From an uncultured Clostridia bacterium (lineage in GTDB: Bacteria > Bacillota > Clostridia > Christensenellales > UBA1242): a stretch of 64,000 nucleotides of DNA. Position numbers and translations under genes: made by a program. Shown here one piece after another: positions 15,181 to 30,196 of this stretch. Position 1 is the stretch's first letter. Each line of letters starts with the position of its first letter. The stretch is taken from contig CANQWK010000001.1 of the NCBI GenBank assembly GCA_947627545.1, positions 81,554 to 145,553 on the forward strand, read 5' to 3'. The notes beneath the pieces are model-generated. The model did no database searches. It had not been told where the DNA came from and worked only from the letters and a program-made list of their open reading frames with translations.

Positions 15181-15534
15181 GGGGATGACTTAGTTTCGAC
15201 TGTCAAATTAATTGTTTATACGCATACCGAGCGACATCTCGATAAACATGTGTTCGTTAGCTCGAACTTAAACAAACGCTAAACAAGAAAATAAACTTGC
15301 TTACGCCGCTTAGTGCGTAGCCGCTAGTTTAAGGGTACCGATACTTTAAAGCCTAGCGTCGTTAATCGGTTAACGCTTTTAAGCATTGCCTAGTGATTAA
15401 AAGTGTACAAAATAGGCTAGTTAAAACAAAGTGTTAGCGAAGTTTGTTTTAGCAAAACTAGACACTAACTAAGTATGTAGAGTATGGGCAGTTCGTTTGT
15501 CAGGACAGGGGTGCAACTCCCCTCATCTCCACCA
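15181..15534 (+). ncRNA. ssrA: tmRNA; tag ORF 15278-15313 encodes (A)AKQENKLAYAA*
   Basis: 5' GGGGATGA..TTTCGAC; 3' AGGGG-TGCAACT-CCCCT-CATCTCCACCA; tag ends YAA-stop; length 354 nt. Confidence 0.95.
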
Positions 15535-15536
15535 AA
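15510..15536 (+). repeat. Left attachment core GGTGCAACTCCCCTCATCTCCACCAAA
   Basis: Identical to 30170-30196. Confidence 0.93.
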
Positions 15537-15537
15537 T

Positions 15538-15558
15538 AGCACAATATATTGTGCTTTT
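15538..15558 (+). terminator. Element-supplied terminator after ssrA
   Basis: agcacaat-at-attgtgct-ttt. Confidence 0.55.
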
Positions 15559-15598
15559 AAAATGGCTTAATCACATAATATGGTGTATGTTGATTAGG

Positions 15599-16654
15599 TC
15601 AATTTTTTTTGTGAGTAGAATTTGAGTAGAATTTTGACTTGTTAAGTATATTAATATACTTATCGTCAATATCGTTATTATGCTTTGTGTAAACTTGTGA
15701 AGTTATCTTGCTGCCAATTTTATGCCCAACCCATGATTGAATTACAAATTCTGGAATTTCATTTTCTTTACATCTCGTTATAAAAGTTGCTCTTAAATCT
15801 TTTAATTTAAAATCGAATGTTAATTTTGTTTTTATTTCTTTCATTAAAAGTTGCAACTGTTTATTTGATATATCGAAAATTCTATTTTTGGCATTTTTAT
15901 ATTTAATTAAAATATCTTTTGTTGTTTCAAACATTGGCATTGTTCTTTTGCTTTGTTCGTTTTTAGTGCTATCAAACTCGTTATATTTGTTAAAGCCTTT
16001 GTCAATAGTTATTGTTTTTTTATCAAAATTCAAATTATCTATTGTTAAACCTAGCACTTCGCCTTTTCTTAAACCCTGGAATAAAGATATTAAAAACAAA
16101 TCTCCATTTTTTAATTTACTGCTTGCGTTTATTAACTCTTGTTCTTGGTTATAAGTTAATGCGTTACTGTTTTTCTTGGTGTGTCTTGGTCTTTCAATTC
16201 TTTTTATAATATTTTTGTCAATAATCTCGTTGTCTTCGGCTTTTTGAAAAACAATTTTTAAAAGTTCATAAAGTTTTTGTTTTTGCCTTTCCGCCGACAT
16301 ATTATTTAAAACATTCAAAATGGTTGCTACATTTATTTGATTTAAAGGCAAATCTTTTATATCTTGCGGTATGTTCTTAAAAATTATTTTGTAATCTAAA
16401 AGAGTTGTATCTTTTACTTTGCCTATTTTGTATAATTCTAGCCATTTATTAAACCATTGATTTAAAGACATCGTTTTAATAAATGTAATTTTTTCATTAG
16501 TGCTATTGATATTTTTTAATGCTTTTTTTAATTTGTTGTAACACTCCTGCTGTGTTTTTGCACTTATGTATTGCTGTTTGCCATTACTTCTAAACCTAGT
16601 GTACCAAGTGTTACATTTTATATTTTTATGTATTGTTACTCCTCTATATTTCAA
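15599..16654 (-). CDS. Tyrosine recombinase/phage integrase (frame open to 16762; likely start TTG 16654)
   Basis: GLRKGEVLGL, KDLRATFITR, WVGH..SKITSQVYTK catalytic motifs; GGAGG SD 8 nt before TTG 16654. Confidence 0.93.
   Translation of the reverse strand: MKYRGVTIHKNIKCNTWYTRFRSNGKQQYISAKTQQECYNKLKKALKNINSTNEKITFIKTMSLNQWFNKWLELYKIGKVKDTTLLDYKIIFKNIPQDIKDLPLNQINVATILNVLNNMSAERQKQKLYELLKIVFQKAEDNEIIDKNIIKRIERPRHTKKNSNALTYNQEQELINASSKLKNGDLFLISLFQGLRKGEVLGLTIDNLNFDKKTITIDKGFNKYNEFDSTKNEQSKRTMPMFETTKDILIKYKNAKNRIFDISNKQLQLLMKEIKTKLTFDFKLKDLRATFITRCKENEIPEFVIQSWVGHKIGSKITSQVYTKHNNDIDDKYINILNKSKFYSNSTHKKN
15612..15633 (+). repeat. Tandem TGAGTAGAATT x2, putative integrase arm-binding sites (also 30101-30122 and 32057-32078)
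   Basis: Same 11-bp doublet lies near each att junction. Confidence 0.7.
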
Positions 16655-16826
16655 TTTTAATTCCTCCATTAAAAGAGGAACATTTTTTGATTTTTGTTTT
16701 TTTAAATCTTCTTTATCTAATTTACCTTTTAAATATGCTTCATATAATTCTACTTCTACCAATATATATTTGAATTGTTCTTTTTGTTTTTTAAAAATTC
16801 ATTCATTTTCATTAATTCATTAATCA

Positions 16827-17393
16827 TTACAAACCATACCTCACTTTATCATTTTCAGAAATGGTTAATTTTTCTAATCTCATTTGGAATGATACATTAT
16901 GACTTTTATCTAAATAATAGGTCAACATATTTCGTTCCTGATAAATTTCATTATCTAATCCAGGAAAAAACAATTGCCCATTTTTTAACACTTCATATTT
17001 CAATTCTAATAGCCCACTTTTAGATAAAATTTGTCCTGACGAAACAATTTTTATTCTATATTCATAATAGATTTTTAAAATATTTGAATTTGATACACAT
17101 GCTCCTTTTTCTAATTTTGAAATTAAAGTTAAAGGTCTAGAAAATTCATTATTTCCATAATCAGAATTGAGTATATCAACTATTTGTCCGTCATCTCCAA
17201 TAATTTTTAATATTGCAGTATTAAACATTAAATTTTCATTCATTTCCATTTGAGTAAAATAATTATAAATTATATTAATTTTTTGTTCTTTGAATTTCTC
17301 TCTTATGAACAATCCAAAACCTATTGCTGTTGTAATTACAAATAAAAATATAATAAGGCAATATATTAAATCTTTTTTTGTGGTTCTTAACAT
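16827..17393 (-). CDS. Membrane-anchored hypothetical protein in lysogeny module (possible exclusion protein)
   Basis: N-terminal TM; located between repressor and integrase. Confidence 0.55.
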   Translation of the reverse strand: MLRTTKKDLIYCLIIFLFVITTAIGFGLFIREKFKEQKINIIYNYFTQMEMNENLMFNTAILKIIGDDGQIVDILNSDYGNNEFSRPLTLISKLEKGACVSNSNILKIYYEYRIKIVSSGQILSKSGLLELKYEVLKNGQLFFPGLDNEIYQERNMLTYYLDKSHNVSFQMRLEKLTISENDKVRYGL

Positions 17394-17396
17394 ACT

Positions 17397-17702
17397 TTAC
17401 TCCGTCAAGCCCTTTACATAGGCTTTTGTTTTAGCCAATTCAAGAGAGTCCATTTTTAAAATTTTCTTAATTAGATAAGCCTCATCTTCATTTAAAAATT
17501 TTAAATTTACAACTTCACTCTCTCTTCCAACTAATTCATCTAATGTAACATTGAAAAAATCAGCCATTTTTACTAAAACACTTATGTTTGGTTCATTTTT
17601 TCCTGCCTCATAATTAAAAAATGTAGTATGCGGCATTCCTAATTTTTTAGCCAACTCATTTTGGGACAGATTCATCTTTTGTCTTAATTCTTTGATTTTC
17701 AT
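17397..17702 (-). CDS. XRE-family HTH repressor (CI-like)
   Basis: IKELRQKMNLSQNELAKKLG...YEAGKNEP...FFNVTLDELVG. Confidence 0.92.
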   Translation of the reverse strand: MKIKELRQKMNLSQNELAKKLGMPHTTFFNYEAGKNEPNISVLVKMADFFNVTLDELVGRESEVVNLKFLNEDEAYLIKKILKMDSLELAKTKAYVKGLTE

Positions 17703-28833: not shown

Positions 28834-29696
28834 TGGGCGGAAGAGGTAGTTTATATTTAAATTTCTATAACCCAAACCATAATAGTATGCCTAATTTAGA
28901 CATAGCAAATATTATATCTACGCAAGACCAAGATAAAGATACTTTAAAAGAATATAACGGAAAAACTGAAAAATTGCGCAATAAAAAAATTTTTATCAAA
29001 GAATCAACCGATTTAATTCCAGAAAATATTTTTAAACCAAACATAAACAAAATTGACCATTTAACTAGAAAATATTTAGATTCTACGCAAATTTTAAAAA
29101 ACCAAAACAAACAAATGTCTATAAGGTCAATAAAATTAAATAATTTAACAACAGCTTGTTATATTTCAAACAATCACAATTTAAATAATTTACAAATTAT
29201 TTTAAATGACAAAATTAAACACACAAAAAAATCTTCACTCGAAACCAATGTTCAAAAAATTATAGATAGAGGTTATTGGGTTAAAACTGATAAAAAAGAA
29301 TTGGTTAACCAAGCAATAACACACGAATTTGGTCATCATATTCAACGAGTACTAATGGAATTAGACAAAACAACTTCTAGCGGTCGAGAAAGATATAATA
29401 ACTATTTAGAAGATGTAAAAAAAGCCAAAACAAAAAGTCAAATCAAAAACTTAGGAAATAAGTTTTTTGAAGATTATGCAACAGAATATTTTAAAGCAAT
29501 TCAAAGAATTGAACGAAAAGAATTTAATCATATAACTACACACGATGAATTAAGTGGTTATAGTACAGAAAGTAATTCAGAAGCATTTGCGGAACTATTT
29601 GCAAAAGCAAATTGCACTAAGGATAAAGACACACTATCAAAGTCAATGGATTTATTTTTAAGTAAAAAAATGAAAGTTGCAGCAAGAAGTAATTAA
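28833..29696 (+). CDS. MGGRG-start protein with zincin HExxH metallopeptidase-like motif
   Basis: Starts MGGRG; ITHEFGHH and SGYS...EAFAELF. Confidence 0.7.
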   Translation: MGGRGSLYLNFYNPNHNSMPNLDIANIISTQDQDKDTLKEYNGKTEKLRNKKIFIKESTDLIPENIFKPNINKIDHLTRKYLDSTQILKNQNKQMSIRSIKLNNLTTACYISNNHNLNNLQIILNDKIKHTKKSSLETNVQKIIDRGYWVKTDKKELVNQAITHEFGHHIQRVLMELDKTTSSGRERYNNYLEDVKKAKTKSQIKNLGNKFFEDYATEYFKAIQRIERKEFNHITTHDELSGYSTESNSEAFAELFAKANCTKDKDTLSKSMDLFLSKKMKVAARSN

Positions 29697-29699
29697 ACA

Positions 29700-29727
29700 T
29701 TGACAAATAAAAAATATTTGATATAAT
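29700..29727 (+). promoter_or_regulatory. Consensus SigA promoter for the last element gene
   Basis: TTGACA-16-TATAAT followed by AAGGAG SD. Confidence 0.7.
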
Positions 29728-29744
29728 AAAAAAAGGAGTTAATT

Positions 29745-30038
29745 ATGTTATTAGATATGCCCTATTTTATGGAAAATAAAGATTGGTTTTATCGTATTAA
29801 AAATGAAGAAACAGGAACTTATAAATATTTTTTAACAGTTTTAGGCAAAAGTATTCCAGAAGTTGTTAAAAGTTATGAAGAACATCAAAAACAACTAAAT
29901 GAGCCTGATATGGTTTTTATTTACAATTCACTTAAAGATGCAGAAGAATCAATACGCAATGATTTAAAAGCAAAGGGATTAGCTGAAAATGAAATTGAAA
30001 AACAAGTAAGTGAATGGAAAGAAAGAATTAGTAAATAA
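29745..30038 (+). CDS. Small hypothetical protein (possible immunity partner)
   Basis: 97 aa, own promoter, MPYFMENKDWFY. Confidence 0.6.
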   Translation: MLLDMPYFMENKDWFYRIKNEETGTYKYFLTVLGKSIPEVVKSYEEHQKQLNEPDMVFIYNSLKDAEESIRNDLKAKGLAENEIEKQVSEWKERISK

Positions 30039-30039
30039 A

Positions 30040-30061
30040 AAAACTAGCATTTTGCTAGTTT
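30040..30061. terminator. Intrinsic terminator
   Basis: aaactagca-ttt-tgctagttt. Confidence 0.65.
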
Positions 30062-30169
30062 AAAAAATCAAAAAATGTTCCTTGAATTTTTGTTAAATTT
30101 TGAGTAGAATTTGAGTAGAATTTTTTGCAATATATCTATTTTATAGGTGGTTTTTGAGTGTTGAGTTAT

Positions 30170-30196
30170 GGTGCAACTCCCCTCATCTCCACCAAA
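30170..30196 (+). repeat. Right attachment core (duplicated ssrA 3' end)
   Basis: Identical to 15510-15536; followed by terminator aagcagtcg-ta-cggctgctt. Confidence 0.93.

Follow-up and report, generated by a model that had tools for sequence, protein, structure and literature searches.

An element integrated in the tmRNA gene of an uncultured Clostridia bacterium joins a Zot/pI-type ATPase and a membrane structural module to a putative iteron-based replicon

The DNA analyzed in this work (referred to as the window) is a stretch of 64,000 nucleotides of an uncultured Clostridia bacterium (UBA1242, Christensenellales; assembly GCA_947627545.1, contig CANQWK010000001.1, positions 81,554 to 145,553), and it harbors an integrated element of 14.7 kb whose genes, relatives and possible way of life are described here. 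The element is inserted in ssrA, the gene for the transfer-messenger RNA (tmRNA; 15181-15534, plus strand), which was recognized both by ARAGORN and by Rfam (RF00023, 140 bits), the Rfam scan of the window disclosing nothing besides it. Two exact direct repeats of 27 bp, i.e., the cores of the attachment (att) sites attL (15510-15536) and attR (30170-30196), enclose 23 open reading frames (ORFs). The last 25 bases of the tmRNA are the start of the 27-bp word, so that the 3' end of ssrA is rebuilt by the att core of the element. Beside attL lies the gene for a tyrosine integrase (15599-16762, minus strand; Pfam Phage_integrase, 5e-11, and Phage_int_SAM_3). In a congeneric genome (G010; 99% complete), the tmRNA match stops at C6:41286 and the match to the right flank starts at C6:41315, the aligned order being tmRNA end, single 27-bp core and right flank; this site is an empty attB, and the same assembly carries a related element (locus L010) at a tRNA-Lys gene instead. 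All the features expected of an integrative element are present, that is, a tyrosine integrase beside the att site, repeats duplicating the 3' end of an RNA gene and an empty site in a relative, and the element, repeats, integrase and repressor that a first-pass annotation of this DNA had proposed were all recovered. In two other congeners, the distance between the tmRNA and the homologue of the right flank is 1.2-1.5 kb (G001, C19:8853-10056; G005, C1:220746-222280); their attB is neither empty nor occupied by this element, and another insert or a remnant is located there.

The gene for a Cro/CI-type helix-turn-helix (HTH) repressor (17397-17702, minus strand; HTH_3, 2e-17) is divergent from one long plus-strand operon, which contains, as the first-pass annotation had read it, a gene for a DUF6291 protein with internal iterons, two genes for small transmembrane (TM) proteins, three genes for N-anchored proteins and an ATPase gene. 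The two small proteins, of 77 aa (19981-20214) and 53 aa (20224-20385), each have a single hydrophobic segment at the N-terminus, and their tails are rich in Lys and Phe; the former, assigned on hydropathy, is a candidate coat or membrane structural protein, and the latter has tblastn matches in three related loci (L003, L005 and L024). All the TM calls were made with our own Kyte-Doolittle script (19-residue window, threshold 1.6) and not with TMHMM. The three larger structural proteins are all membrane-anchored at the N-terminus and carry an ectodomain: a 409-aa alpha/beta protein (20395-21624; AlphaFold2 model with a mean predicted confidence, pLDDT, of 77.6), a 582-aa protein with Listeria-Bacteroides B-repeats (21614-23362; Flg_new, 1.4e-6) and a 385-aa protein with BspA-type leucine-rich repeats (LRR; 23469-24626; LRR_5, 7e-85). 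The last two are candidate receptor-binding proteins, and the length of the head domains varies from 170 to 948 aa in the family. The 409-aa protein gave no usable match in the ESM Atlas and none in the phage collection.

This block of genes is closed by the gene for a 275-aa P-loop ATPase without a TM segment (24649-25476, plus strand), with Walker A at residues 7-14 and an LLDE motif at residues 111-114. Different comparisons point to the Zot/pI family. The Zot family PF05707 is matched by 17 of the 23 close homologues, and the profile of the ATPase family matches PDB 2r2a, i.e., the N-domain of a Neisseria Zot protein (E 0.0028). The same structure is the top PDB match (E 7e-7) when the AlphaFold model of the ATPase (pLDDT 71) is searched with Foldseek, followed by the packaging ATPase B204 of STIV2 (3e-5) and by RecA-like proteins; FtsK-like EssC and HerA appear at ranks 17 and 50. 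In BFVD, Zot proteins named 'Inoviridae sp.' occupy ranks 5, 9, 10 and 12, and ORF3 of plasmavirus L2 rank 14 (E 4.5e-5). When the family profile was aligned with hhalign, the best values were obtained with the Zot protein of an inovirus (bajarodino virus 15; E 5e-6, probability 86%) and with pI of M13 (E 7e-4, over the whole ATPase domain), the values for L2 ORF3 (E 0.061, probability 0.9%) and for VP8 of the pleolipovirus HRPV-1 (E 0.053, over 15 columns) being much poorer. The closest known ATPase domain is hence Zot, with no other ATPase type matching better, and VirB4 and VirD4 are absent from both the profile and the fold matches; the Zot/pI style attributed to this protein from the sequence was borne out, and a clustering with conjugation ATPases was not observed. 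Direct searches with the window ATPase in NCBIfam and in the PDB sequences gave no meaningful match, and tblastn against the phage and plasmid collections gave none; the proposed link with Zot runs through the homologues, the family profile and the predicted fold. The phmmer matches in PDB to mCherry were discarded as chance matches to the C-terminal beta region. The HMMER scan returned 382 ATPase clusters (50% identity) at E <= 0.001, 169 of which at E <= 1e-10.

The scans for relatives disclosed 41 related loci (31 in species-representative genomes, nine in metagenomes and one in IMG/VR), the genome matches being mostly metagenome-assembled genomes of uncultured Clostridia, Christensenella and Lachnospiraceae. 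Ten of these loci are bounded by att repeats that duplicate tRNA 3' ends and enclose 10.9-14.1 kb with the same layout, a size that leaves no room for a head-tail module. Taking these ten and the window element together, the integrase, the HTH repressor and the Zot ATPase are found in 11 of 11, the 582-aa family in nine, the 409-aa family in eight, and the 77-aa TM protein and the LRR family in six each. Two clades can be distinguished. The clade of the window (clade A) includes 19 loci with an ATPase identity of at least 36% and with a 125-aa family after the ATPase; in the window, the corresponding ORF overlaps the ATPase stop codon (25455-25832, plus strand), and it is present in 15 of the 18 other loci. 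In the sister clade (15 loci), the genes after that for the ATPase encode first a conserved protein of about 135 aa and then a Rep protein of about 340-390 aa, which matches PF23343 (REP_ORF2-G2P; E 5e-9, 36.7 bits, cut-off 27.8). This Rep also matches those of 28 phage records; the best 25 of these, all from 'bajarodino' or 'Dulem' viruses, measure 4.7-8.8 kb, and both bajarodino records inspected are filed as Inoviridae. A G2P-type Rep was found in none of the 19 clade-A loci. The 77-aa (in 18 other loci), 409-aa, 582-aa and LRR families are common to both clades, and in both the structural genes, flanked by the replication gene and the ATPase gene, come in a constant order. In the ATPase tree rooted with inovirus Zot, clade A (18 rows, support 100/100) lies inside a grade of Rep-bearing elements.

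A member of this family has already been deposited. Bajarodino virus 12 (PQ006185.1), a circular genome of 9,828 bp from rodent feces filed as Inoviridae in GenBank, matches the family profiles of Zot (3e-52), integrase (2e-47), repressor (1e-22) and a 541-aa structural protein (7e-77), and has the same layout, with the integrase and repressor on one strand and small ORFs, two N-anchored proteins and Zot on the other. Its Zot protein (266 aa) is also TM-less, and its six-frame translation contains no match to G2P, HTH_36 or DUF6291. The family has, therefore, already been seen as a free circle labelled as an inovirus. This qualifies the first-pass suggestion of an undescribed virus group, the group being not entirely new in view of this GenBank member and of a sister clade that keeps an inovirus-type rolling-circle replication (RCR) Rep. 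A literature search on bajarodino viruses found no describing paper. A stretch of about 1.5 kb of this genome (L062:1980-3531) has no annotated gene, its six-frame pieces look non-coding and ARAGORN found no tRNA or tmRNA in it; it may hold an origin or a structured RNA. Other peculiarities were observed in single loci: 105 bp repeated 3.4 times in tandem (96% match) between att and integrase in L020 (1168-1525), and an array of 13 copies of 18 bp upstream of the ATPase gene in L031 (8294-8527). A fragment of the sister clade of 2.9 kb (L026, CAVEBU010000035.1), with Zot, the conserved neighbor and Rep, belongs to an assembly of Alistipes finegoldii (Bacteroidota); all other hosts being Bacillota, it could represent bin contamination or a free element.

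The replication slot lies directly upstream of the small TM gene and is occupied by an HTH_36-type gene in clade-A relatives and by the DUF6291 gene (19048-19968, plus strand; PF19808, 9e-19) in the window. HTH_36 scores above the cut-off in L003 and L007 and below it in four other loci. The DUF6291 gene embeds two blocks of 11-bp iterons (19322-19398, 6.8 copies; 19453-19551, 9.0 copies), about 16 in all and followed by an AT-rich stretch, which represent a putative origin; the HTH_36 gene of L003 embeds 21-bp repeats. Among the 120 DUF6291 homologues listed, all contain PF19808, 35 also the DnaD-like domain PF07261 and four PF09524; many lie on contigs about 30 kb long, two bear the name of DnaD-family proteins at the source, and the source names include 'DnaD/phage-associated'. 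The N-domain, moreover, matches six records of tailed or unclassified phages, in one of which it adjoins an ERF-family recombinase gene. The reading of the DUF6291 protein as a putative origin-binding replisome organizer is based on the iterons inside its gene, on the DnaD-like fusions and on the matches in tailed phages, and the gene with its iterons fits an organizer of the type whose origin lies within the gene. In the window, the C-terminal half of the protein contains no recognized domain, and a weak DnaD-like match (E 0.006, below cut-off) falls in a separate 134-aa ORF of the right arm. No helicase, helicase loader or single-stranded DNA (ssDNA)-binding protein gene was recognized in the element. 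In the RCR clade, a family of 105-121 aa encoded ahead of the structural genes is a candidate for an ssDNA-binding protein; searched against PDB, its profile gave a best E of 0.51, and nothing of it was found in the window. The G2P-type Rep profile did not match the element in any of the six frames (best E 0.38), and no Rep family was found in it with Pfam or PHROGs (20 ORFs scanned with each), in keeping with the non-rolling-circle replicon that had been proposed. A literature search on DUF6291 found no papers. In two clade-A loci, AT-rich 10-bp tandem repeats (7.6-9.5 copies; L003:11460-11532 and L010:11322-11411) are located downstream of the 125-aa family gene and adjoin a second plus-strand HTH gene, possibly representing a further origin or regulatory region of clade A.

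On the whole, we estimate with a probability of about 60% that this is an intact temperate element which works like a filamentous phage, i.e., through non-lytic, ATPase-driven export; the family is best read as widespread in gut Clostridia and as descending from, or sister to, the filamentous phages (Tubulavirales). According to this reading, the integrase would recombine the 27-bp core that the element has in common with the 3' end of ssrA, and the repressor would silence the element. The excised circle would replicate from the iterons inside the DUF6291 gene, probably through a DnaD-like organizer of tailed-phage type instead of the G2P-type rolling-circle nuclease of the sister elements. 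The morphogenesis module would consist of the small single-TM proteins, of the N-anchored proteins, whose variable LRR/B-repeat heads are likely to bind receptors, and of the soluble Zot ATPase, which, by analogy with pI, might drive the assembly of the particle and its export through the membrane without lysis. A more detailed history, in which a branch of the filamentous phages lost the membrane anchor of Zot and clade A then swapped the rolling-circle nuclease for an iteron-based DnaD-type organizer of tailed phages, is possible but distinctly tentative.

Several observations weigh against the filamentous-phage-like reading. The ATPase lacks a TM segment in all the 11 bounded elements and in 156 of 158 full-length homologues (by crude hydropathy), and pI normally carries a hydrophobic segment. 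The window ATPase itself matches no Pfam family, not even Zot at E 10. The relatives of the 77-aa protein mostly have acidic C-tails; the major coat protein of the Ff phages has a basic one, and these acidic tails speak against a coat simply modelled on that of Ff. The model of the 409-aa protein matches no fold (none of 48,161 PDB chains at Z >= 5, none in BFVD at E <= 0.001). A theta-type replicon, in addition, offers a filament no obvious source of ssDNA, and we infer the initiator role of the DUF6291 and HTH_36 proteins from position, iterons and domain fusions. The polarity of the ATPase tree is tentative because the single outgroup branch is very long, and in IMG/VR the family is all but missing, two scans having yielded a single contig. 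Finally, the particle, the excised circle and the transcript of this element are predictions from its sequence.

In terms of the working definition of inoviruses, the element possesses an ATPase domain closest to Zot and, upstream of it in the same operon, single-TM proteins within the range of 30-90 aa (77 and 53 aa). The ATPase is devoid of the one or two transmembrane domains (TMDs), N- or C-terminal, that a genuine pI must have according to a passage of Roux et al. 2019 (PMC6813254). A rolling-circle initiator, in turn, is missing from the window and present in the 15 loci of the sister clade. Since these two features are lacking, the element was not filed as an inovirus.

Another explanation is that the particle is pleomorphic and membrane-enveloped, similar to those of plasmaviruses or pleolipoviruses, with the N-anchored proteins as spikes and the small TM proteins in the envelope. 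An envelope is indifferent to the type of genome, and a single structural module could therefore serve RCR and non-RCR replicons; this would account for the fact that the module shared by the two clades accompanies winged-helix or DUF6291 proteins in one and a G2P-type Rep in the other, in parallel with the pleolipovirus genera, which differ in replication protein and genome type. The large structural proteins, all of them anchored ectodomain proteins, would also suit an envelope, as would the rank of L2 ORF3 in BFVD and the similar gene layout and integrase of L2. However, the hhalign values for L2 ORF3 and VP8 are not significant and Zot/pI scores better, the 409-aa model resembles no viral spike fold, and both the sister elements and the GenBank member tie the family to inoviruses. 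The genome of the host (1.10 Mb, 94% complete) encodes Spo0A and penicillin-binding proteins (two PF00905 transpeptidase genes above cut-off), in agreement with the spore-forming, Clostridia-like host envisaged by the first-pass annotation; the penicillin-binding proteins indicate a walled cell, and a budding particle would have to cross the wall. An enveloped particle is thus judged unlikely. The proposal that the element is an extruded or enveloped virus survives in its non-lytic, filamentous-phage-like form, as far as can be read from the DNA, and nothing favors the enveloped over the extruded variant.

About equally unlikely is that the element is not viral at all, being instead an integrative plasmid-like element that moves rarely or by other means, whose ATPase and N-anchored proteins form a surface or adhesion apparatus of benefit to the host. 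BspA-type LRR and Listeria-Bacteroides repeats are, to judge from the Pfam names, common in bacterial surface adhesins; the ATPase has no pI-like anchor; and, bajarodino records apart, IMG/VR and the phage collection contain hardly any members of the family. Nevertheless, the structural genes, set between those for replication and for the ATPase, follow a fixed, inovirus-like order in both clades, the head domains vary in the manner of receptor-binding proteins, and a circular member of 9.8 kb has been deposited as a virus. Family members are, furthermore, found at different sites in five of the 12 congeneric genomes, with ssrA empty in one of them, and the ATPase matches no plasmid record.

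It is very improbable that the element derives from a tailed prophage by deletion, or that it is a satellite exploiting the capsid of a helper. The DUF6291 N-domain does occur in tailed phages (the six records) and on contigs of about 30 kb, and the integrase and repressor are of a kind generally found in prophages. Yet the ten bounded relatives, in the same order throughout, contain no head, tail, terminase or small-terminase family, and the element has a conserved morphogenesis module and ATPase of its own. In the element itself, the scans described above revealed no terminase, portal, capsid, tail, lysin, holin, relaxase or HUH Rep family, so that the absences noted in the first-pass annotation were upheld, and no relative with a complete head-tail module was encountered. 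A conjugative or mobilizable island (ICE/IME, i.e., an integrative and conjugative or mobilizable element), with the ATPase as a coupling or VirB4-like motor, is the least probable alternative, since to the combination of a P-loop ATPase, membrane proteins and an integrase, and to EssC and HerA low in the fold list, one has to oppose the lack of relaxase, VirB4, VirD4 and type IV secretion system families in any ORF scanned with Pfam and PHROGs, the Zot proteins as top fold and profile matches of the ATPase, and a phage G2P-type Rep rather than a relaxase in the sister clade.

The remaining parts of the element are less conserved. Near the two ends, an 11-nt repeat, GAGTAGAATTT, occurs as a doublet on the left (15609-15635) and in further copies on the right (30087-30124), and these might be arm-type sites of the integrase; analogous doublets exist at both ends of three relatives (L005, L007 and L029). 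Between the integrase and the repressor, a 188-aa protein with an N-terminal TM segment is encoded (16827-17393, minus strand), with a homologue only in L003 and no family match in Pfam, PHROGs, NCBIfam or PADLOC. The divergent control region (17703-18188) contains a promoter-like site (17811-17840) and two copies, 161 bp apart, of the 12-nt word TTTTGTTCGACA (17716-17727 and 17877-17888), which are candidate operators, as well as short GC-rich hairpin-like stretches between 17899 and 18150; promoter-like sites are not enriched with respect to shuffled sequences (73 found, shuffled mean 87.5). Two early ORFs of 103 aa, recognized from the sequence (18189-18500 and 18715-19026, plus strand), precede the DUF6291 gene, and the first is similar to a small-ORF family of L005 and L010 (E 7.5e-6).

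The variable right arm (26035-30038, plus strand) contains nine ORFs, i.e., those for proteins of 71 aa, 56 aa (two TM), 210 aa (CxxC pairs), 149 aa, 134 aa (the weak DnaD-like match), 98 aa (four TM), a DUF4417 protein, 287 aa (HExxH) and 97 aa; the four-TM protein is the only one recurring in relatives (L006 and L010). The 149-aa ORF (26968-27417) shows a weak PADLOC match to PDC-M49B, a candidate defense family (E 6e-4), beyond which the PADLOC scan of ten accessory ORFs found nothing. The 287-aa ORF (28833-29696) carries an HEFGHH (HExxH) motif and has no significant match to a protease family (Peptidase_Mx, E 0.38). The last ORF (29745-30038) is immediately preceded by a promoter-like site (29700-29727) that is perfect (TTGACA-16-TATAAT) and includes an extended TG, and this end of the right arm may be expressed independently in the lysogen.

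Outside the element, the flanking host genes are those for pyruvate kinase (left) and a DUF1848 protein (right). The genomes of the host genus (the host and 12 congeners) measure 0.7-1.1 Mb at an estimated completeness of 72-99%, which is very small for Clostridia; Spo0A and penicillin-binding proteins are kept in the host genome, the sole one of the genus tested for them, in spite of its small size. The stretch is present as contigs in four DNA sequencing runs of one rabbit-gut sample, possibly its source, and the sequencing-run lookup turned up no RNA run.

In practice, the definition of a filamentous phage relies on two features, a pI/Zot ATPase anchored in the membrane and a rolling-circle Rep. 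Clade A lacks the anchor and the Rep and retains the fold of the ATPase and the order of the genes; screens based on TMD and RCR criteria would therefore miss this family, which is large and common. The occurrence of the same morphogenesis module with RCR and non-RCR replicons represents a natural experiment on the linkage between virion type and replication mode, and points to unrecognized chronic, non-lytic elements with variable LRR/B-repeat surface proteins in gut Clostridia. If infectious particles are made, either the ssDNA of a filament would be produced in a way new for inoviruses, or the particle would contain double-stranded DNA and be constructed in a new manner out of N-anchored spike-like proteins; in both cases, if true, a new virus family would be warranted, one that is common in uncultured gut Clostridia with small genomes. 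The novelty is best placed in the TM-less Zot ATPase, in the N-anchored structural proteins and in the non-rolling-circle replicon of clade A. At the level of titles and abstracts, the literature search found neither TMD-less Zot elements nor non-RCR inovirus-like elements described, and the supplementary lists of PMC6813254 could bear on this point.

Among known systems, the inoviruses are the closest. The element shares with them the Zot/pI ATPase closing a block of small TM and larger adsorption-type proteins, the att integration, the repressor and the lack of lysis genes; further links are the G2P-type RCR Rep of the sister clade and the four gene families in common with bajarodino virus 12. 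Its length of 14.7 kb is near the upper limit of the 5-15 kb given for inovirus genomes in a passage of PMC6813254, and the inoviruses of the Gram-positive gut bacterium Enterocloster, as far as a passage of PMC10061712 describes them, are among the closest known systems. The element differs from inoviruses in the TM-less ATPase, in the iteron and DUF6291 (DnaD-type) replicon, with no RCR Rep in clade A, and in the N-anchored structural proteins, which are unrelated in sequence to known coat proteins. With the Acholeplasma phage L2 (NC_001447), a plasmavirus whose release is non-lytic, the element has in common a temperate lifestyle, a circular genome (about 12 kb in L2), an integrase and large envelope proteins encoded upstream of a P-loop ATPase of about 300 aa. 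Nevertheless, there is no significant sequence or profile similarity, the host of the element is walled, and the annotated origins of L2 contain DnaA boxes and not iterons inside an initiator gene; a kinship with L2, prompted by the BFVD rank of its ORF3, was rejected on the hhalign values. Pleolipoviruses combine a core of membrane protein, spike and NTPase with interchangeable replication modules; their representative HRPV-1 (NC_012558) differs from the element in that the hosts are archaeal, the alignment with VP8 is confined to the Walker B region, and no spike fold in BFVD matches the 409-aa model. As to the replicon, lambda O and SPP1 G38P are tailed-phage replisome organizers with the origin inside the gene. 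The DUF6291 protein differs from them in having a C-terminal half without a recognized domain and no accompanying helicase or loader gene, and it shares with this type the iterons within the coding sequence of the initiator itself and an N-domain that is often fused to the DnaD-like domain PF07261.

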